From: Deltaproteobacteria bacterium
Lineage (GTDB): Bacteria > Desulfobacterota > Binatia > UTPRO1
Length of the DNA stretch: 64,000 nt
Reading direction: 5' to 3'
Assembly: GCA_020848745.1 (NCBI GenBank)
Contig: JADLHM010000141.1
Span: 38,599 to 102,598 of the forward strand
Shown: piece by piece, positions 3,066 to 39,065 of the stretch
Layout of the letters: the number at the start of each line of letters is the position of its first letter
How positions within the stretch are numbered: position 1 is the stretch's first letter
Program-made: the position numbers and the translations under genes
The notes under the pieces: generated by a model
What the model was told of the DNA's origin: nothing
The model's database searches: none
The model's input: the letters and a program-made list of their open reading frames with translations, nothing else

Positions 3066-3186
3066 GCGCGCGGATGATAGGCACCGCGATCCGGAGGCGC
3101 AAGTCGCCGGCGGGTGTGGCTGCCCCGCCGGTGAGCTGGTAAGAGCCGCGACCGGCGCGGCGGCCACGCGCTCGGGAGGAGATCGG

Positions 3187-10716: not shown

Positions 10717-10782
10717 GTCCGCCGCGCTCTCGCGGAGGACGCCGCGTTGCCGCCGAGCCGAGCCGTCTGCTACGTCGTCGCC

Positions 10783-11166
10783 ATGGACGTTGCCGCCGCG
10801 CTGAAAGGCGTTCGCGCCGCCGCCGAGACCCAGGCCGGCCTCCGAGCGCTGCTCCTCTTCGGGTCGCGGGCACGCGGCGACGCGGCAGCGACGGCGGATT
10901 GGGATTTCGGCTATCTCGGCGAGGACGGTTTCGATCCTTTGGACCTGCGGGCCGCTCTCGTCCGCCTCCTCGCGACCGACGACGACGACCTGGTCGACCT
11001 GTCGGCGGCGAGCGGTCTCTTGCGCTTTCGGGCCGCCCGTGACGGCGTCCTCGCGTGGGGCGACCCTGCGGAGGTCGCGCGGTTCCGCCTCGAAGCGGCA
11101 TCGTTCTGGTGCGAGGCGGAGCCGATCCTGCGCGCGGCCTACGACGCCGTGCTCGAGCGGCTGTGA
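10783..11166 (+). CDS. nucleotidyltransferase (MntA-like antitoxin of HepT/MntA type VII TA family)
   Basis: Minimal NTase motif LLFGSRARGDAAATADWDFGY; stop overlaps the next start (TGATG). Confidence 0.7.
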   Translation: MDVAAALKGVRAAAETQAGLRALLLFGSRARGDAAATADWDFGYLGEDGFDPLDLRAALVRLLATDDDDLVDLSAASGLLRFRAARDGVLAWGDPAEVARFRLEAASFWCEAEPILRAAYDAVLERL

Positions 11167-11374
11167 TGCCGGCTCTCGATCGCGAGATCCTGGCGGAGCG
11201 CGCCGCGGCGGTCGAACGCCACCTCACCCGCGTCGCCGAGCGGTTGCCGGCGCGCCCGGAGGACCTCGAGCCTGCCACCGACGCCTGGACATGCGCCGGA
11301 TCCACGACGCGGCGACGAACGGCTCGCCGGACCTCCGGACGTTCCTACGCCGCGTGCGAGACCTGCTCGGCTGA
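11166..11374 (+). pseudogene. probable HepT (DUF86/HEPN) toxin remnant, truncated and frameshifted
   Basis: Frame 0: MPALDREILAERAAAVERHLTRVAERLPARPEDLEPATDAW, then degenerate; frame +2 reads …LDMRRIHDAATNGSPDLRTFLRRVRDLLG* (weak Rx4HxY-like). Total <70 codons versus ~120 expected. Confidence 0.3.
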
Positions 11375-11460
11375 GCCGCCGTCGCCATAACGGGATTGCG
11401 TCTCCGAGGCGCACCTACGCCTTGCCGTCGTGACCTGAAGCCGCCATATTGAAAGCGGAA

Positions 11461-12645: not shown

Positions 12646-12980
12646 GGCGCGTCAGGTCCGTTACGTGCGGCGCCGCGTGCCCGCGACCTCGTCGATCTCG
12701 GTCCAGAGGTCGTCGAGATCCAGCACGAAACCCGGGCACCCGGGACCGCGCCCCTCGCCGGCTCCTGCGCCTCGGGCACGATGTCGAGGCGTTTCGTAAC
12801 GTCACGAGCTTCGACCACCTCGCGCGCGTGCGATCCGGATCTGCTCCTCGAGGCACGGCAGCAGATCCGCCTGATCGATCGCCGTCTCGAGCTGCCCGAT
12901 CAGATCACGCACCCGGCCGACCAAAGACGTACCATCGTCCGCCGAACTTGGTGAGGACGGGCGCGAGGGCCCGGAGCAGG

Positions 12981-13274
12981 TCAGCGGCGGTGGGGTCGGT
13001 CGACACGACGGAGCGCCTTTCCCACCCGGACGTGGGTTTCGAGGTCGGCCTCGCGGTCGGCCGCGGTGGGCCAGGTCGGCTGCTGGCGGGCGACCTGGCG
13101 TCGGAGCGCGTCGCCCACCTGAAAGCACCACGCGACGCCCCGGCGCCGGCGCTCCTCGAGCCACTGCTCGGTCTTCGCGGCTTCCAGGGTTTCCCAGTCG
13201 CGTCGCGCGAAGCGCGCGATGTCCTCCGGGCGCACGAGGGCGAGCCTATACGTTCCGTTCGCCAGCTCAAGCAA
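12981..13274 (-). CDS. hypothetical protein or gene fragment
   Basis: 97-aa ORF with protein-like composition (MLELANGTYRLALVRPEDIARFARRDWETLEAAKTEQWLEERRRRG…); neighbouring out-of-frame ORFs (12802..13164, 12399..12818) suggest a decayed gene spread over three frames. Confidence 0.2.
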   Translation of the reverse strand: MLELANGTYRLALVRPEDIARFARRDWETLEAAKTEQWLEERRRRGVAWCFQVGDALRRQVARQQPTWPTAADREADLETHVRVGKALRRVDRPHRR

Positions 13275-13392
13275 GGGTCAGGCGACGGGAGGCGTCCGTG
13301 CGCATGGAGGCCGACATCCGAGACCCCGTCGCTGCCCTTCGACCATTGCGGCGACCGCGGTTGCGCTCGTGACGGCGGTTGCGGGTAGCGGA

Positions 13393-13719
13393 TCATCCGC
13401 GCGACGGCCGGGCTCGTCGTGCCTGCGTTCGTCCTGCCCGCTTCCCGGATCGGCCTCCGGTCGGCCGCGCCGCGGCGGCCGCAAAGTGCGCCCTCACCTC
13501 GTCCAGGGAATAGGTTCGCGGATCCTTCCGGCTCGCCTCGATCATGCGCCAGAAGCGAGGGTTGGACATGAGCATCACGTCCTCCAGGTCGCGCCCTTCC
13601 ACACCGATCACGATGGCGCATGGCCGACCGTTGCGGGTGATGAGGATCCGTTCCCGTTGGGCATCTTCGAGGGTGGCGCTGAGGCCGCTCTTCGCTTCGC
13701 GAATCGCCAGCACTCTCAT
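13393..13719 (-). CDS. Phd/YefM family type II antitoxin
   Basis: MRVLAIREAKSGLSATLEDAQRERILITRNGRPCAIVIGVEGRDLEDVML…; ATG 13719 overlaps the stop of the upstream toxin gene (ATGA). Confidence 0.8.
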   Translation of the reverse strand: MRVLAIREAKSGLSATLEDAQRERILITRNGRPCAIVIGVEGRDLEDVMLMSNPRFWRMIEASRKDPRTYSLDEVRAHFAAAAARPTGGRSGKRAGRTQARRARPSRG

Positions 13720-14012
13720 AGGATCTCCTTTGTGGTCCGCCGACCCTTTCGGAGTACCGCCCGAACGATCACCAGTCTGGTCGAGCTGTCGACGTCGTAG
13801 ATCACGCGGAATTCCCCGACGCGAAGTTGCCACACCGGCTGAACGTGCTCGAACGGCGGCACCACCCCGGGCAACTGCTTGCGACGCGGCGTCTCTTGCT
13901 GGGGATCGTTGCGAAGGTGCGTCATGATCTCGTCGAGGATTCGGTTGCGGTCGTACGAGCGGATCGTCGCCAGATGATCCACAGCCAACTGCGCGATCCG
14001 AACGCCGAACAT
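13716..14012 (-). CDS. ParE/RelE family type II toxin
   Basis: 98-aa ORF with the RelE/ParE C-terminal core (…WQLRVGEFRVIYDVDSSTRLVIVRAVLRKG…); coordinates from the ORF track. Confidence 0.75.
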   Translation of the reverse strand: MFGVRIAQLAVDHLATIRSYDRNRILDEIMTHLRNDPQQETPRRKQLPGVVPPFEHVQPVWQLRVGEFRVIYDVDSSTRLVIVRAVLRKGRRTTKEIL

Positions 14013-14127
14013 CAGAGACTACAACTGTAGTCACACAGCCCCGCGGCGCGCAAGCCCGCTCGTTCATATCTTCAACAAGAGCTTCTCTGGCCATGGTTGG
14101 CCCGGGGTCGATTTCGATTGACGGGCC

Positions 14128-14215
14128 TATTTCCAACACCGCCTTTCGTGCCGTCCCCGTTGCGAAGAGTGCATCGAAGGAGGATCTCCGAGCCATTCGA
14201 ACCCTGCTCGCGATG
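14128..14215 (+). repeat. degenerate duplicate of the 5' UTR/RBS/start region of the DGR target gene
   Basis: cctttcgtgccgtccccgtt..cgaaggaggatctccgagccattcgaaccctgc vs 14415-14500 gttttcgtgccgtctcccgtt..cgaaggaggatctccgATGcgcgttccagttcgaaaccttgc; third weaker copy gtcgatagaaggaacctcatcga at ~14314-14338. Confidence 0.5.
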
Positions 14216-14380
14216 ACCGTGTCCGGACGATTTCGGCGGACTACAGCGCATCGTCGAGATCGTACCGGTTGAGGCATCGTGCCTGCCGTCCTCCGTTCGC
14301 CGCATGCCGAGTCCTCGAACGAAGTCGATAGAAGGAACCTCATCGAGGTCGGCCCGGCGGAAACGCTCGCCATTTTTCGA

Positions 14381-14407
14381 TTGACCGGGGGGGGGGGGGG
14401 GTAGGCT
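14381..14407 (+). promoter_or_regulatory. candidate sigma70-type promoter with homopolymeric G15 spacer (possible phase-variable promoter of the DGR target gene)
   Basis: TTGACC (14381-86), G x15 (14387-14401), TAGGCT (14402-07); ~67 nt before ATG 14474; AGGAGG RBS at 14461-66. Confidence 0.4.
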
Positions 14408-14473
14408 ATCGCCAAAGCCGTTTTCGTGCCGTCTCCCGTTCCGTAGATTCCGTCGATCGAAGGAGGATCTCCG

Positions 14474-15424
14474 ATGCGCGTTCCAGTTCGAAACCTTGCG
14501 CTGGCGGCGCTCGCCGTCGTCGCACTTTCCGCCAGCGCTGCGCGGGCCGCGACCCCAGCCCAGAAGTGCCAGGCCGGTAAGAACAAGGCCGCCGGGAAGT
14601 ACGCCGCCTGCCGCCACGGCGCCGAGGCCAAGCTCGCCACCACCGGCGACGGCGCGGCCTATGCAACGGCCATCGGCAAGTGCACGACCAAATATGGAGC
14701 CGCCTGGCAGAAGCTCGAAGCCAACGCCGGCGGCGCCTGCCCGAGCAACGGCGACGAGACCGCGATCGGCACCGTCGTCGACGGCTGCACGACCAACATC
14801 GCGACCGCCGTCGGGGGCGGGGTGCTGACCGATTGTCCGGCGGACCTGGCGGCGTGTCTCGCGGCTCCGCAAGGGCAGCGCCTGAAGACGGAGCAGTACG
14901 CCTGCTACGACGCCGGGGGCGTGGTGATCCCCTGTGCCGGCACCGGGCAGGACGGCGAGCTCCAGAAGGGGTTGGCGCGGAGCTATACCGACAACGGCGA
15001 CGGTACGATCACCGACGACCGGACGGGCCTCATGTGGGAGAAGCTGTCGGACGACGGCAGTCTCCACGACAAGGACAATTACTACACGTGGACGAACGCC
15101 TTCGCGGTGAAGATCGCGGGCTTGAACGCGGGTGGAGGCTTCGCCGGCCATACGGACTGGCGGTTGCCCAACGTCAACGAGCTCCAGAGCCTCGTGAGCT
15201 ATGGGGCGGTGAACCCGTCCGTAAGCGCTGCGTTCAATACGGCGTGCGCCCCGGCGTGTACCGTGACGACCTGTAGTTGTACCCAGTCGAACTTCTATTG
15301 GTCGGCTACGACGTATCAGGACAGTCCGTCGCTCGCGTGGCTCGTGTTCTTCTTCGACGGCGACGTGTACGCGGACGGTAAGCCCGACAACTACTATGTT
15401 CGCGGAGTGCGTGGCGGCTCGTGA
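14474..15424 (+). CDS. DGR target (variable) protein: secreted Cys-rich protein with C-terminal DUF1566/Lcl-C-type domain
   Basis: Sec signal MRVPVRNLALAALAVVALSASAARA; C-terminal motifs GLMWEK, WRLPNVNEL, YWSATTY, YYVRGVRGGS typical of DUF1566; last 143 nt form the VR. Confidence 0.9.
   Translation: MRVPVRNLALAALAVVALSASAARAATPAQKCQAGKNKAAGKYAACRHGAEAKLATTGDGAAYATAIGKCTTKYGAAWQKLEANAGGACPSNGDETAIGTVVDGCTTNIATAVGGGVLTDCPADLAACLAAPQGQRLKTEQYACYDAGGVVIPCAGTGQDGELQKGLARSYTDNGDGTITDDRTGLMWEKLSDDGSLHDKDNYYTWTNAFAVKIAGLNAGGGFAGHTDWRLPNVNELQSLVSYGAVNPSVSAAFNTACAPACTVTTCSCTQSNFYWSATTYQDSPSLAWLVFFFDGDVYADGKPDNYYVRGVRGGS
15282..15424 (+). repeat. DGR variable region (VR) at 3' end of target gene
   Basis: 143 nt matching the TR at 16063-16205 with 21 mismatches, all at TR adenines; the last ~30 nt (tatgttcgcggagtgcgtggcgg) are identical to the TR. 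Confidence 0.85.
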
Positions 15425-15471
15425 TCGATCATTGGATCATTTGAAGGTTTGACCATTTGATTTCGGGGGGT

Positions 15472-15493
15472 CTGGGGGGCGGGAGCCCCCCAG
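15472..15493 (+). promoter_or_regulatory. GC-rich stem-loop 48 nt downstream of VR (DGR target-recognition hairpin candidate)
   Basis: ctggggggc-ggga-gccccccag: perfect 9-bp stem with 4-nt loop. Confidence 0.55.
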
Positions 15494-15508
15494 GGAAAGC
15501 GGCTAGCA

Positions 15509-15907
15509 ATGGCGCAGACCGAGCACCTGCCGATCTACAAAGCGGCATACGACTTCTGTCTCTGGTGCGAGCAAGTCGTCCAAGGCTTCTCGCGCTACCA
15601 CAAGTACGCGCTCGGCGCCGACCTCCGCGAGGGCGCGCGCCGTGTCGTGAAGCTCGTCGTGCGGGCCAACGCACGGCGCGACAAGCGGCCGGTGTTGCTC
15701 GAGGTGCGCGAGGAAGTCGAGCAGCTGAAAGTGCTCTTGCGGCTCGGGCACGACGTCAAGGCATTTCCCAATTTCAACAGCTTCGAGCACGCCATCACCA
15801 CCGTCACCGGCATCGCCAAGCAGAACGAAGGTTGGTTGAAGAGTCAGGGCCATGGCCAGAATCGGCGGGCAATGCCGGCAGGGCTCGCCGCGCCGAGCGC
15901 GCCATGA
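15509..15907 (+). CDS. avd: DGR accessory variability determinant (Avd-like four-helix-bundle protein)
   Basis: 132-aa protein (…LPIYKAAYDFCLWCEQVVQGFSRYHKYALGADLREGARRVVKLVVRANARRDK…) resembling four-helix-bundle/23S-rRNA-IVS-family proteins; positioned between VR and TR. Confidence 0.8.
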   Translation: MAQTEHLPIYKAAYDFCLWCEQVVQGFSRYHKYALGADLREGARRVVKLVVRANARRDKRPVLLEVREEVEQLKVLLRLGHDVKAFPNFNSFEHAITTVTGIAKQNEGWLKSQGHGQNRRAMPAGLAAPSAP

Positions 15908-16062
15908 TCACGAGGTCCCGCTCCCGCCCGTCGCCGCGTCCTGGTGCCGGGCGAACGCCAAGGCCCTGTAGCGGGGCGGCGGCAGAAGGGCGTCTTCCCG
16001 CGCTGCCGCACGGCCAGGCGTCCGGGTCCGGCGGCAGCAGGCCGGGAACAAGCGGCGCGGGC

Positions 16063-16205
16063 GCCAGTCGAACAACTATTGGTCGGCTACGACGTATCAG
16101 AACAATCCGTCGAACGCGTGGAACGTGAACTTCAACGACGGCAACGTGAACGCGAACAATAAGACCAACAACAACTATGTTCGCGGAGTGCGTGGCGGAT
16201 CGTGA
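16063..16205 (+). repeat. DGR template repeat (TR)
   Basis: Encodes QSNNYWSATTYQNNPSNAWNVNFNDGNVNANNKTNNNYVRGVRGGS; AAC/AAT-rich; every VR/TR difference falls on an A here. Confidence 0.85.
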
Positions 16206-16214
16206 TCGGCCCTG

Positions 16215-16255
16215 CGGGGAGGGAGCACGGGCTCCCTCCCCGGTTCGTTTTTCTG
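16215..16255 (+). terminator. stem-loop plus T-tract immediately after TR (intrinsic terminator-like / TR-RNA 3' structure)
   Basis: cggggagggagc-acgg-gctccctccccg (12-bp perfect stem) followed by gttcgtttttctg. Confidence 0.5.
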
Positions 16256-16311
16256 TGCGCGTATCACACGACGATCAGGCGGTGGCTCGGCGCTGGCCGT
16301 GACGGTGTTGC

Positions 16312-17964
16312 GTGGACGATCTCTACGGCTTCGCGAATCTGTACCGCTGCTACCGGCGCTGTCGCCGGCACAAGCGCGGCACCGTCAATGCGCTCGCGTT
16401 CGAGATCGACGCCGAGGCGAAGCTGCTCGATTTGCAGCGGGCGCTCCGCGACCACAGCTACGTGCCCGGACGTTCGGTCTGCTTCGTCACCGAGGGGCCG
16501 AAGCCGCGCGAGGTTTTCGCGGCGGACTTCCGCGATCGCATCGTCCACCACCTGCTGGTCGAGCGGCAGGAGCGCGTCTTCGAGCCGCGCTTCATCCACG
16601 ACTCGTACGCCTGCCGTCCGGGCAAGGGCACGCTCGCCGCGAGCGATCGGCTCATGCGCTTCCTCCGCCAGCTCACCGCCAACGGCCGGCGGCCCGGCTG
16701 GGCCCTGAAGCTCGACGTCGCGAGCTTCTTCGCGTCGATCCACAAGGCGACGCTCTACGAGCTGATCGCGGCGCGCGTCCGCGACCCGGAGCTCCGCTGG
16801 CTGACGTGGACGATCCTCTTCCACGACCCGACGCGCGATTATCGCTTCCGCTCGCTCGGCGGGCACGTGCCCGGTCCGGAGACTCCCGGCTACCCGGTGC
16901 CGCCGGCGAAGAGCCTCTTTGGCGCCGGCAACGCCCGCGGCCTCCCGATCGGGAACCTCACGAGCCAGTTCTGGGCCAACGTCTATCTCGATGCGCTCGA
17001 TCAGTTCGTGAAGCGCGAGCTCCGCTGCCGCCGGTACGTCCGCTACGTCGACGACCTCGTGCTGCTGGCCGACGATCCGGAGCGGCTCCGGGGCTGGCAT
17101 GCGAAGATCGCGGGGTTCCTTGCCGAACGCTTGCACCTCGCCCTGCGGGCCGAGGCGGCGGAGCCGCGGCCGGTGGGCGCGGGCGTCATGTTCGTCGGGT
17201 GGCGGACCTGGTGGAGCCACCGCGTGCCGCGGCGCCAGACGCTCGGTAACCTCGCGCGCCGGCTCGCCGGCTTCGAGCGTGTCCTTTGTGAGCCGGCGCT
17301 GGCGGGAGCGGCGCGCGCCATCGACCTCGAGCGGCGGGTGCGTCCCGCGGCGCCGCGCGCGGGCCGGCCGGTACGCAGGGTGTCGTCGCAGTTGCAGGCG
17401 ACGCTTGCGGCCTACGGCGGGCACCTCCGTCACGGCGCCGCCTACGGTCTCTGGCTCCGGATGTGGGAGCGCCATGCGGCCTGGCTGCCGCTAGTGTGTC
17501 GCCGCACGGGGTGGCGCGCCGGCGTACGGTGGTCCGCCGCGCCGCGTGCGGTCCCGGCGCGCGGTTCACGCGCGCGACCGCTCGCCCGCGCCTATCGCCA
17601 TCTGCTGCGGGCGGCGGGCGACGACGTGCTCCTCTTTCTCCAGGTCGGGCGCTACGTCGAGCTCTACGGGCCGCAGCGCGTGCGCGGGGAACGCCTCCTC
17701 GGGCTCCGGGCCGTGCACCTGCCGCGCGCGGGGTTCGGGCTCGCGGCGGGGTTCCCGCGGAGCTGTCTCCGCGCGTTCGTCCGCCGCGCGCTCGCTTCAG
17801 GCTGGTCGGTGATCCTGGCGGTGGAGCGGCGTTCCGACCGTGCCCCGTGGTCCTTCGAACGTACGCCGGCCAGGCTCTGGGTGTCGCCATACGCGCGGTC
17901 GGCCTCAGTGGGCCAAGCGCAGCCGGCGGTGTGGGTCAGCCTCGAGGTGGCCACGGCTTCTTGA
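16312..17964 (+). CDS. DGR reverse transcriptase
   Basis: GTG start; RT motifs including LPIGNLTSQFWANVYL (IGxxxSQ, DGR-diagnostic) and RYVRYVDDLVLLADD (YxDD box); 550 aa with an Arg-rich C-terminal ~200 aa of uncertain validity. Confidence 0.9.
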   Translation: MDDLYGFANLYRCYRRCRRHKRGTVNALAFEIDAEAKLLDLQRALRDHSYVPGRSVCFVTEGPKPREVFAADFRDRIVHHLLVERQERVFEPRFIHDSYACRPGKGTLAASDRLMRFLRQLTANGRRPGWALKLDVASFFASIHKATLYELIAARVRDPELRWLTWTILFHDPTRDYRFRSLGGHVPGPETPGYPVPPAKSLFGAGNARGLPIGNLTSQFWANVYLDALDQFVKRELRCRRYVRYVDDLVLLADDPERLRGWHAKIAGFLAERLHLALRAEAAEPRPVGAGVMFVGWRTWWSHRVPRRQTLGNLARRLAGFERVLCEPALAGAARAIDLERRVRPAAPRAGRPVRRVSSQLQATLAAYGGHLRHGAAYGLWLRMWERHAAWLPLVCRRTGWRAGVRWSAAPRAVPARGSRARPLARAYRHLLRAAGDDVLLFLQVGRYVELYGPQRVRGERLLGLRAVHLPRAGFGLAAGFPRSCLRAFVRRALASGWSVILAVERRSDRAPWSFERTPARLWVSPYARSASVGQAQPAVWVSLEVATAS

Positions 17965-18079
17965 GGGCGGTGCCACGCCTGCGGAAAACTCTCGGGCACA
18001 CGGGACCCTTCGTCGTCGCCCGCATCACCCGCAGGGACCGCACTTGACCGACATCCGTACAGCCTGTACAGCATGGCCC

Positions 18080-18334
18080 GTGTCGCGAACCCATCGCAAA
18101 GGCGTCGAAGAGGCCCGCAACCAGCTGCCTGCGCTGCTCGCGGAGGCTGAGAAAGGGCGCGTCACGATCATCACGCGCCATGGTCGATCGGTTGCCGCGA
18201 TAGTCCCGGTGGCGCGCGCCATGGGTGTGCCACGCCAAAGATCGCTTGTCGGGTTGACGGGGTCCGGCAAAGGCTTGTGGGGAAAGGGCAGCACCAAGGC
18301 CCTGCGCCGCCTGCGTGACGAGTGGAGCCGCTAG
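18080..18334 (+). CDS. VapB/Phd-like type II antitoxin
   Basis: …THRKGVEEARNQLPALLAEAEKGRVTIITRHGRSVAAIVPVARA…; putative GTG start; 13-nt overlap with vapC; palindrome GTACAGcCTGTAC (18057-18069) overlapping a putative -10. Confidence 0.55.
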   Translation: MSRTHRKGVEEARNQLPALLAEAEKGRVTIITRHGRSVAAIVPVARAMGVPRQRSLVGLTGSGKGLWGKGSTKALRRLRDEWSR

Positions 18335-18747
18335 ACCTTTCGGCCCTGCCGCACGGAGGGCTGGTGCTCGTCGATACGGCCCCGATCGTCTACGTCCTCG
18401 AAGCGCATCCGCGGCTCGCCTCTCGGTTCCAACCCCTATTCGATCTCCAGGCGGCGGGGGACATTCTCTTCGCGGTGACGACGACGACCGTTGCGGAGGT
18501 CCTGACGGGACCATTGGCCGCTGGCGAGGAGGCGCTGGCACGACGCTATCGCGCCGTGATGGAGTCGTGGCAGGTGATTGACCTGACCACCGATCTCGCG
18601 GAGAGCGCAGCGCGTTTCCGGGCGGTCTTGAAGCTGAAGCTCCCCGATGCGATTCAGGTCGCGAGCGCGATCGCAGTCAACGCCGATGCGCTAGTGACGC
18701 ACGATCGCGACTTTTCGCGCGTAAAGGCGGTGACGATTCTGAGCTGA
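18322..18747 (+). CDS. vapC: PIN-domain toxin VapC
   Basis: 141-aa PIN domain (…GLVLVDTAPIVYVLEA…, …DAIQVASAIAVNADALVTHDRDF…). Confidence 0.8.
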   Translation: MEPLDLSALPHGGLVLVDTAPIVYVLEAHPRLASRFQPLFDLQAAGDILFAVTTTTVAEVLTGPLAAGEEALARRYRAVMESWQVIDLTTDLAESAARFRAVLKLKLPDAIQVASAIAVNADALVTHDRDFSRVKAVTILS

Positions 18748-37631: not shown

Positions 37632-39065
37632 ATGCCAGGCAAGGTGATACGCGGCACGCGTCTGCCACGACGAGCGCCGCGTGCGGTACGCGCCGTGCTC
37701 GTCGCCGCGTATCGCGCCGCGGTCGCCGCCGTCGATCCGCGGACCGTCGCGGCGAGCGCGCTCGCGCTCGATCGAGAGCGCGAACGACTCGTCGTGCGCG
37801 CTCGCGGTCGGCGCGTGGTGCTGCCGCTCGGCGGAGGGCTCGTCGTGATCGGCGCGGGGAAGGGCGCGGCCGGCCTCGCGGCCGGCGCCGAGGCGGTCGT
37901 CGGATCGCGCGTCGTCGACGGCTGCGTGATCGTGCCGCCAGGCTACGAGCGTCCGCTCGCGCGGGTCGCGATCGCTCACGGGAGTCATCCGGTACCCGGC
38001 GCGGCCAGCGTCGCCGCGACCCGCCGGATGCTCGCGACGCTCGCCCGCCATCCGCGCGCCGCCGTGCTGGTCGTGCTCACCGGCGGCGCATCGAGCCTGC
38101 TCGTGCTGCCGGCGGCGGGTCTCTCGCTCGCCGACGTACGACGCGCGGGCGCCTGGCTCCTCGCGAGCGGCATCGACATCGCGGGCGCCAACGCGATCCG
38201 GAAGCACCTCTCGGCGGTCACGGGAGGGCGGCTCGCGGCGCGTCTGGTCGGGCGCGCCGCCGCCGCGGTCGTCGTCTCGGACGTGCCCGGCGACGACCTC
38301 GCGGTGATCGGCTCGGGACCGACGGTCGCCGATCCGAGCACCTTCCGGTGCGCCACCGTGCTCGCGCGCCGGATCGGGTTGGCGCCGGAATTGCCTGCGG
38401 CGGTCCGGCGGCACCTGGCGCGCGGCGCGCGGGGGGAGATCGCGGAGACGCCGAAACCGGGCTCGCCCGCCGGCCGTGCGTGTCCGACGATCCTCCTCGC
38501 GGGGAACGCGACGGCATGCGCGCACGCGGCCGCCTGGGGACGACACGCGGGGTTTTCGCGGATCGTCGTGCGGCGCGCTCCCCTCGTCGGCGCGACGGCC
38601 GACGCGGCGCGCGCCGTCGTCCGCGGCCTGCGCACCGCCGCGGCCCGCGCCCGCGCGGGGTCGCCGGTGCTCTGGATCGCCGGGGGCGAGACCACCGTGC
38701 GGCTCGGCGGCGCGTCCGGGAAGGGCGGCCGCAACCAGGCCCTCGCGCTCGCGGTCGCGCGCGAGCTCGCCGACGTCGACGGCTGGGCGCTCCTCGCGGC
38801 GGGCACGGACGGGATCGACGGGCCCACGGACGCCGCGGGCGGCTTCGTGGACGGGGCGAGCGCCGGGCGCGCGATGCGCCTCGGCCGGACGCTCGCACGG
38901 GCGCTCGATCGCCACGACGCGTATCCGCTGCTCGCCGCGCTCGGCGACCTCTTCCGGCCCGGACCGACCGGGACGAACGTCGCGGACCTCGTGATCGCGA
39001 TCGTGTGGAAGGATCGCGGATGGCGGCTCCCCGGTCGTGTGATAGAAGCGAAGAGCCGCCGATGA
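37632..39065 (+). CDS. glycerate kinase (MOFRL/GckA-type)
   Basis: DUF4147-like N-terminus plus MOFRL C-terminus (…VLWIAGGETTV…, LAAGTDGIDGPTDAAGG…). Confidence 0.75.
   Translation: MPGKVIRGTRLPRRAPRAVRAVLVAAYRAAVAAVDPRTVAASALALDRERERLVVRARGRRVVLPLGGGLVVIGAGKGAAGLAAGAEAVVGSRVVDGCVIVPPGYERPLARVAIAHGSHPVPGAASVAATRRMLATLARHPRAAVLVVLTGGASSLLVLPAAGLSLADVRRAGAWLLASGIDIAGANAIRKHLSAVTGGRLAARLVGRAAAAVVVSDVPGDDLAVIGSGPTVADPSTFRCATVLARRIGLAPELPAAVRRHLARGARGEIAETPKPGSPAGRACPTILLAGNATACAHAAAWGRHAGFSRIVVRRAPLVGATADAARAVVRGLRTAAARARAGSPVLWIAGGETTVRLGGASGKGGRNQALALAVARELADVDGWALLAAGTDGIDGPTDAAGGFVDGASAGRAMRLGRTLARALDRHDAYPLLAALGDLFRPGPTGTNVADLVIAIVWKDRGWRLPGRVIEAKSRR

Follow-up and report, generated by a model that had tools for sequence, protein, structure and literature searches.

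A length-polymorphic poly-G tract at a promoter-like site upstream of a diversity-generating retroelement target gene

The G15 tract at the retroelement locus and in independent assemblies

The DNA analysed here (the window; 64,000 nt, positions 38,599 to 102,598 of contig JADLHM010000141.1, assembly GCA_020848745.1, from a Deltaproteobacteria bacterium) carries a diversity-generating retroelement (DGR) whose target gene is preceded by an uninterrupted run of 15 G residues set between two promoter-like hexamers. The cassette is a genuine DGR with the tract on the 5′ side of its target, and the target open reading frame (ORF), ribosome-binding site (RBS), avd, template repeat (TR) and reverse transcriptase (RT) are all intact. 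The elements upstream of the target are:

14370..14380, + strand: A/T-rich block (CCATTTTTCGA) directly 5′ of the -35-like box, common to the closest relatives, which may be an UP-like element
14381..14386, + strand: -35-like hexamer TTGACC, kept as TTGAC followed by C, A or G in the relatives L089, L166 and L167
14387..14401, + strand: G15 homopolymer, a putative hypermutable promoter spacer, filling the whole gap from TTGACC to TAGGCT
14402..14407, + strand: -10-like hexamer TAGGCT (TAnnnT), with TAG-type hexamers in homologous loci
14408..14473, + strand: predicted 5′ untranslated region (UTR), holding the conserved motif TTTCGTGCCGTCTCCCGT and the AGGAGG RBS (14461-14466)

The cassette that follows consists of:

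14474..15424, + strand: DGR target gene encoding a 316-aa Lcl_C/DUF1566 protein (Pfam Lcl_C, E = 2.7e-28), with the variable repeat (VR) at its 3′ end
15283..15427, + strand: VR, 86% identical to the TR, every mismatch falling at a TR adenine
15509..15907, + strand: avd (Pfam bAvd, E = 8.5e-14)
16064..16208, + strand: TR, with a hairpin and T-run on its 3′ side at 16215-16242
16312..17964, + strand: DGR reverse transcriptase (RVT_1, E = 5.3e-12)

Direct reading of 14381-14407 (+) gave TTGACC GGGGGGGGGGGGGGG TAGGCT, with a G run of exactly 15 nt at 14387-14401, followed by the AGGAGG and by the target ATG at 14474. This confirmed the arrangement described in an earlier sequence-only reading of the window, the distance from TAGGCT to the ATG being 66 nt. 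That reading had also called such a run highly unusual, and rightly so: at a GC content of 71%, G15 is the sole homopolymer of at least 9 nt in the window, the only other run of at least 8 nt is a T8, and the G runs number 35 at length 5, nine at length 6 and one at length 7 before the single run of 15. From base composition alone about 0.006 G15 runs would be expected per window (hand calculation from run and base counts), and the tract is far beyond chance as a long uninterrupted repeat well above the genomic background. The downstream gene had been taken for a DGR target, an identification upheld by VR/TR mismatches lying only at TR adenines and by the bAvd and RVT_1 domains. In-frame translational phase variation was considered and rejected, since the target frame is closed by a stop 27 nt before the ATG and the tract is therefore out of frame.

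Same-strain contigs from at least seven samples were retrieved by exact-protein look-up. At the tract they read as follows:

L004 (SRR24928204): tract crossed, G15; 100% identical to the window over 4575 nt
L006 (SRR24928203): tract crossed, G14; one gap relative to the window in 1601 nt, located in the tract
L001 (JGI 3300009873): contig starts with C-G14-TAGGCT; 100% identical over 2536 nt, VR included
L002 (SRR6032603): contig starts with G14-TAGGCT; 100% identical over 1105 nt
L007 (SRR11294031): contig ends 14 nt before the tract; 100% identical over 1512 nt

The allele was G15 in the window and L004 and G14 in L006 and L001, and the tract was the only variable site over 1.6-4.6 kb. In the window, L004 and L006 it is internal and bordered by identical unique flanks; L001 and L002 also carry the downstream one, and L007 carries the upstream one. 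Because the same flanks occur in independent assemblies, the tract is not an artefact of a single assembly, a concern raised with the original observation; a chimeric join and a poly-G artefact of two-colour chemistry were rejected on the same ground. A further concern, that tract length might prove invariant, was answered by the G14/G15 difference between identical contigs and by a second locus, the orthologous tract of a 77%-identical relative, which is G10 in L089 and L175 and G11 in L174, with no mismatch and one gap over 2339 nt between L174 and L089. As judged from consensus assemblies, repeat length is polymorphic between otherwise identical copies. Three contigs (L001, L002 and L007) break at the tract or no more than 14 nt away from it, which is only suggestive as a mark of heterogeneity within the population.

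It could be argued that the tract is real but stable, and that the length differences and contig breaks are technical (Illumina phasing or quality collapse, consensus noise). All length differences are exactly 1 nt, contigs break at or beside the tract as low-quality poly-G reads would cause them to do, the intergenic contig ends at 14045, 14103 and 14423 all lie away from the tract, and the G10-AT-G13-A-G9 sequence at the end of another DGR contig (L014, see below) looks error-laden. Such noise accounts poorly for the G10/G11 difference, which lies where consensus errors should be rare and between contigs otherwise free of mismatches, and for the wide range of lengths between related loci (10, 11, 15 and 18), which points to fast evolution of length; moreover, it bears on the evidence for polymorphism only and leaves the recurrence of such tracts at other DGRs unexplained. 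We consider this explanation unlikely.

Homologous loci and other poly-G runs

In an alignment of the closest relatives (alignment A3; target identity 74-77%), ATTTTtCG was found directly 5′ of TTGAC in the window, L089, L166 and L167, and the segment after the TTGAC box was G-rich, being G15 in the window, tcccc-G10 in L089, ccc-GGCGGGGGGAGGG-tgt followed by TACACG (19 nt) in L166, and gtcggcgtggtcc in L167. In L169, gcattttgcgg precedes TTGTAA. A more distant family (L011, L106, L120, L154, L137 and L169) has TTGACC, TTGGCC or TTGTAA followed by N18 and TA(G)nnT at 45-70 nt before the ATG, the hexamers 18 nt after the -35 boxes being TAGTCT, TAGTAT, TAGCCA, TAGAAG, TAACTT and TACTCT. TTGAC was present in 15 of 54 target-upstream windows as compared with 9% of control windows, an approximately threefold enrichment. 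A promoter is the favoured reading of the window site because this distant family has TTGACC-N18-TAnnnT at the same place; on this homology, TTGACC and TAGGCT are credible -35 and -10 elements of a family with a spacing of 18.

The window itself contains a second version of the region:

14112..14205, + strand: degenerate upstream copy of the promoter, 5′ UTR and first codons, without G tract and without start codon

This copy, 263 nt upstream of the main one, is identical to 14375-14496 at 82 of 93 aligned positions and reads TTGAC-GG-GCCTAT, as against TTGACC-G15-TAGGCTAT in the main copy, so that the two paralogues differ by about 16 nt at the tract. Without the tract the two boxes would be too close to work; as only 4 nt separate TTGACG and TATTTC (14118), the upstream copy is no plausible promoter. 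It may be the remnant of a duplicated or deleted target gene. Further upstream, 58 nt at 12761-12818 are 79% identical to part of avd (15733-15790) and translate to LRLGHDVEAFRNVTSFDH; this segment has the look of a residual avd and hints at a second DGR copy that has decayed. In the leader, a pyrimidine-rich motif, TTTCGTGCCGTCYCCCGT, was also noticed at 14423-14440 and, in the upstream copy, at 14145-14162; the closest homologues of the target have it in their 5′ UTRs as well (L168, ~125-150; L089, ~1185-1205), and it gave no folding or Rfam signal.

Poly-G runs were surveyed in 165 related loci (932 kb), in which every internal G or C run of at least 10 nt lay within about 110 nt upstream of a DGR gene. 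G runs of this length occurred in 5 of 51 target-upstream windows of 120 nt, as against 0 of 1748 control windows drawn from those loci. The five positive loci, and a sixth with its run before an RT gene, are:

L017: TTTACA-tccccc-G18-TAGAGG, 46-63 nt before the target ATG
L089: G10, 5′ of the target
L128: TTGCCT-tc-G11-agggga-TACTTT, ~85 nt before the ATG
L030: G11-ca-TTGACC-N17-AACCAT, 71-81 nt 5′ of the ATG of a small, unrelated target; locus from a Burkholderiales metagenome-assembled genome (MAG)
L014: G10-AT-G13-A-G9 (26-60) at the contig end, 62-107 nt before the target ATG
L082: G12 (3082-3093, minus-strand sense), ~25 nt before a second RT gene

The tract proposed from the window alone thus has counterparts at related DGR loci, and VR/TR pairs were confirmed in L017, L030 and L014. 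Since the L030 target showed no tblastn similarity to the window target, the tract at L030 is probably of independent origin. Only a few percent of loci have such tracts, yet the enrichment is very strong.

The six runs are all G on the sense (non-template) strand, and no C run of at least 9 nt was found in the 51 upstream windows. This orientation would be expected if a strand-specific DNA structure (a G-quadruplex or an R-loop-prone non-template strand) modulated initiation or insulated the promoter largely independently of length. G15 is the minimal pure G run for a three-tetrad quadruplex with 1-nt loops (4 × 3 + 3) and reaches the minimum of the (G3+ N1-7)×4 motif, but the G10/G11 tracts of L089, L128 and L030 fall below it and are too short for a three-tetrad quadruplex alone. 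In addition, the strand bias represents only about three to four independent events, L089 and L017 having ACAtcccc-Gn in common. A structural role of this kind is very unlikely in our judgement.

Alternatively, the real promoter might lie further upstream, with the tract transcribed in the 5′ UTR and poly-G RNA affecting stability, translation or attenuation. The promoter-like copy at 14118 and the L014 tract, upstream of the -35-equivalent sequence, could be taken in this sense, as could L082, a low-GC locus with two divergent RT genes, where the G12 is situated ~40 nt downstream of a perfect TATAAT and, although it adjoins a DGR gene, would be transcribed. Folding of 14345-14480 was, however, no better than that of shuffled sequences (z = 0.16), and an Rfam search at E <= 1 gave no credible match, only one chance-level CRISPR-DR match elsewhere in the region (E = 0.96), so that a known RNA element or structured leader is unsupported. 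With a conserved TTGAC box immediately 5′ of the tract and no plausible promoter in the upstream copy, a role in the 5′ UTR appears highly improbable.

Several features of these loci were observed in passing. The target associated with G18 in L017 (2599-3427; ~610 aa) contains three 243-nt tandem repeats, 61-95% identical, between its N-terminal region and the Lcl_C/VR domain. In L089 (1233-1260, the same in L174 and L175) an avd-RT deletion has fused the avd N-terminus to a C-terminal remnant of the RT, leaving a decayed DGR, and a 1-nt frameshift directly follows the ancestral ATG (ATG AAA CCC TGA), so translation probably restarts at an internal ATG; the ORF that the gene caller stretched through the L089 tract (P0006) looks like a high-GC artefact. 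Long runs also form the ends of DGR contigs just upstream of avd or the target, in L054 (1-17, C17), L069 (12-54, C43) and L014 (26-60); these are either real tracts that break assemblies or poly-G read artefacts, the two not being distinguishable.

Predicted promoter switching

Taken together, these observations lead us to favour, with modest confidence, a slippage-prone promoter tract of the PorA/fim type that would tune or switch expression of the target. According to this model, G15 would be a simple-sequence repeat prone to slippage and situated within the core promoter of the target gene, where replication slippage (slipped-strand mispairing) would add or remove G residues, thereby altering the -35/-10 spacing and hence transcription, with a predicted start near 14414 if TTGACC/TAGGCT is the working promoter. 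Because the family spacing of 18 exceeds the 15 and 14 nt of the G15 and G14 alleles, these alleles are predicted to be weak or off, and G17-G18 alleles to be on, restoring the family geometry; at L030 and L014 a change in length would instead shift the phasing relative to upstream elements. The expected outcome is a heritable, reversible and stochastic switching or grading of target transcription, the product being a putatively secreted ligand-binding protein whose C-terminal VR would be separately diversified by the retroelement.

The fim tracts of Bordetella pertussis sit between the activator (BvgA) site and the -10, a layout that L030 and L014, with tracts upstream of the -35, resemble more than the window does. 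Like the window, with its putative promoter and putatively surface-exposed product, the high-GC B. pertussis has a G:C homopolymer of ~13-15 nt at the promoters of surface-structure genes, fim2/fim3. These poly-C tracts switch expression of the fim promoters, small insertions and deletions toggling fim2/fim3 between high and low expression (PMC2562373). In Neisseria meningitidis, transcription of porA follows the number of G residues in the -35/-10 spacer (PMC3899988); a poly-G spacer between -35 and -10 precedes a surface-protein gene, matched in the window by a putative promoter and a putatively surface-exposed product, and a single-G change alters porA transcription (PMC3899988; PMC2562373). 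The window tract differs in that it is longer (14-15 G), makes up the entire spacer and precedes the target of a DGR; it comes from the MAG of an uncultivated 'Deltaproteobacteria bacterium' of 71% GC and not from a host-adapted pathogen, and its effect is predicted only. A G-rich element upstream of a gene under programmed hypervariation is also known from Neisseria gonorrhoeae pilE, where a 16-nt quadruplex of the G3TG3TTG3TG3 type is needed for recombination and does not act through promoter spacing. In contrast, the window tract is a pure homopolymer, the diversification takes place ~900 nt away by retrohoming, and the G10-11 tracts of the relatives cannot form such a quadruplex. The cassette itself resembles DGRs of the Bordetella phage BPP-1 mtd type and those with chromosomal Lcl_C/DUF1566 targets in having an RT, Avd, adenine-specific TR/VR differences and a VR at the 3′ end of a target with C-type-lectin fold. 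Full-text literature searches returned no account of a promoter of a DGR target that contains a homopolymer or other simple-sequence repeat, and to our knowledge the known layers of DGR control do not include one. The arrangement would therefore be of the known porA/fim kind, in a context for which no report was found (the DGR target promoter) and in which it recurs.

Several results weigh against a promoter switch. 1) A sigma-70 scan of 13000-18500, requiring a spacer of 16-18 and at least 9 of 12 hexamer matches, found no promoter; TTGACC-G15-TAGGCT escapes it on both counts, with a spacer of 15 and only 8 of 12 hexamer positions agreeing with the consensus. The site as it stands is promoter-like and no canonical promoter; a canonical sigma-70 promoter was rejected on the empty scan, and the promoter call is based on homology instead of consensus score. 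Inspection of the region by eye only gave no convincing sigma-54 or extracytoplasmic function (ECF)-type match either. 2) The alleles observed at the window tract are all short (14 and 15), with none at the predicted optimum of 17-18, and the 1-nt difference between them could be an Illumina or consensus error, which is less likely for G10/G11. 3) The geometry of other loci does not conform: a spacer of 24 nt would result at L017, no credible -10 exists at L089, where the DGR is decayed, and the L030 and L014 tracts are upstream of the -35 and outside the spacer. 4) L014 and L030 entered the comparison only once their tracts had been spotted, and without them the unbiased count is 3 of 49. 5) The target protein is unchanged on three other contigs from three different samples and the VR is 100% identical in all three contigs that span it (L001, L002 and L003); the sampled copies gave no sign of ongoing VR diversification, although consensus assemblies could mask minor variants.

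Some of these results would equally suit a non-adaptive origin, in which slippage ran away in a G-rich spacer under relaxed selection and the tract is a promoter lesion or neutral and not a switch. An interrupted G-rich spacer such as that of L166 (GGCGGGGGGAGGG) could seed the expansion; none of the observed spacings (14, 15, and 24 in L017) is functional under sigma-70 rules; at L089 a G10/11 tract persists although the DGR is dead and the start frameshifted; the VR does not vary between samples; and decayed DGR pieces (the upstream promoter copy and the avd remnant) lie in the window. Drift of this sort fits less well with the recurrence at 5 of 51 target-upstream windows against 0 of 1748 control windows, including the probably independent L030, or with the presence of tracts at intact DGRs (L017, L014 and L030) and before the intact window cassette. 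Long uninterrupted tracts also decay quickly without selection. We assign the non-adaptive origin a small probability.

Promoter switching is thus partly supported: the tract is real, replicated and length-polymorphic, appears to be embedded in a promoter by homology, and recurs at DGR targets, from which we infer the switch function. As for the initial proposal of a phase-variable promoter with the G run as its spacer, the promoter part is sustained by the TTGAC box and the N18-TAnnnT homology and weakened by the empty consensus scan, and the phase-variable part is sustained by length variation, recurrence and TTGAC homology and weakened by the occurrence of short alleles only; the non-uniform geometry of the relatives tells against both.

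The tract might further gate the whole target-avd-TR-RT cassette, making mutagenic retrohoming itself phase-variable and poly-G a recurrent, independently evolved layer of DGR control. Such gating is conceivable because the four elements are on one strand with no recognisable promoter between them (same sigma-70 scan), but we regard it as a doubtful extension of the promoter switch. If it were true, a stochastic on/off switch would act on a hypermutation machine and only a subpopulation would bear the cost of diversification and display.

A DGR varies the sequence of a binding protein, and a phase-variable promoter varies whether the protein is made. If the promoter switch is true, both layers on one gene would amount to simultaneous bet-hedging on display and specificity in uncultivated high-GC lineages; a homopolymer upstream of VR-bearing genes would be a simple genomic marker for DGR targets under fluctuating selection; and contingency loci, known to date chiefly from host-adapted pathogens, would also exist in environmental Binatia-/Deltaproteobacteria-like MAGs. 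The tract also breaks short-read assemblies between the DGR target and its upstream neighbours, which biases the recovery of such loci.

The surrounding DNA

The window RT is 35-69% identical to the best 80 of 553 related RT stretches from genome contigs, and its nearest counterparts among GTDB representatives (54-69% identical) are from Binatia, Dadabacteria, Myxococcales and 'delta proteobacterium' MAGs. The NCBI record of the exact target protein is 'MAG: DUF1566 domain-containing protein [Deltaproteobacteria bacterium]', its 90% protein cluster has a single member, and a scan of viral contigs with the target protein found no phage relatives. The N-terminus of the target, MRVPVRNLALAALAVVALSASAARA, resembles a Sec signal peptide on reading of the residues, and the Lcl_C domain is a ligand-binding fold; a secreted or surface-exposed location is putative.

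Upstream of the target, the intergenic region (14013-14473, 461 nt) is bordered by a divergent ParE/Phd toxin-antitoxin pair on the minus strand (13393-14012; Pfam). Control of this operon by the tract was considered and is unlikely, the parE start being 375 nt away. The DGR is set among toxin-antitoxin-like pairs at 10747-11390, 13393-14012 and 17840-18747, among them a Polbeta nucleotidyltransferase with a putative HEPN partner and, directly after the RT, a VapB-like/PIN pair, these two assignments coming from reading or neighbour annotation only.

In the RT, residues 423-503 (17578-17820) at the C-terminus gave a weak MutS_I match (E = 3e-4, just above the Pfam cutoff), and in L069 a stand-alone ORF upstream of avd (125-415) is MutS_I-like by eye only; MutS-like accessory modules of DGRs may have a bearing on how mismatches are handled. 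A G6-loop-C6 hairpin is located at 15474-15491, ~50 nt past the VR and the stop codon, and a strong 12-bp hairpin with a T-run (16215-16242) directly follows the TR, before the RT gene; the two are probably DGR target-recognition or TR-RNA structures, or a terminator. Finally, between the target stop and avd a second TTGACC is followed by a G-rich segment, G6-tct-G6 (15449-15480), which has no evident -10 and loosely resembles the layout of the target promoter.

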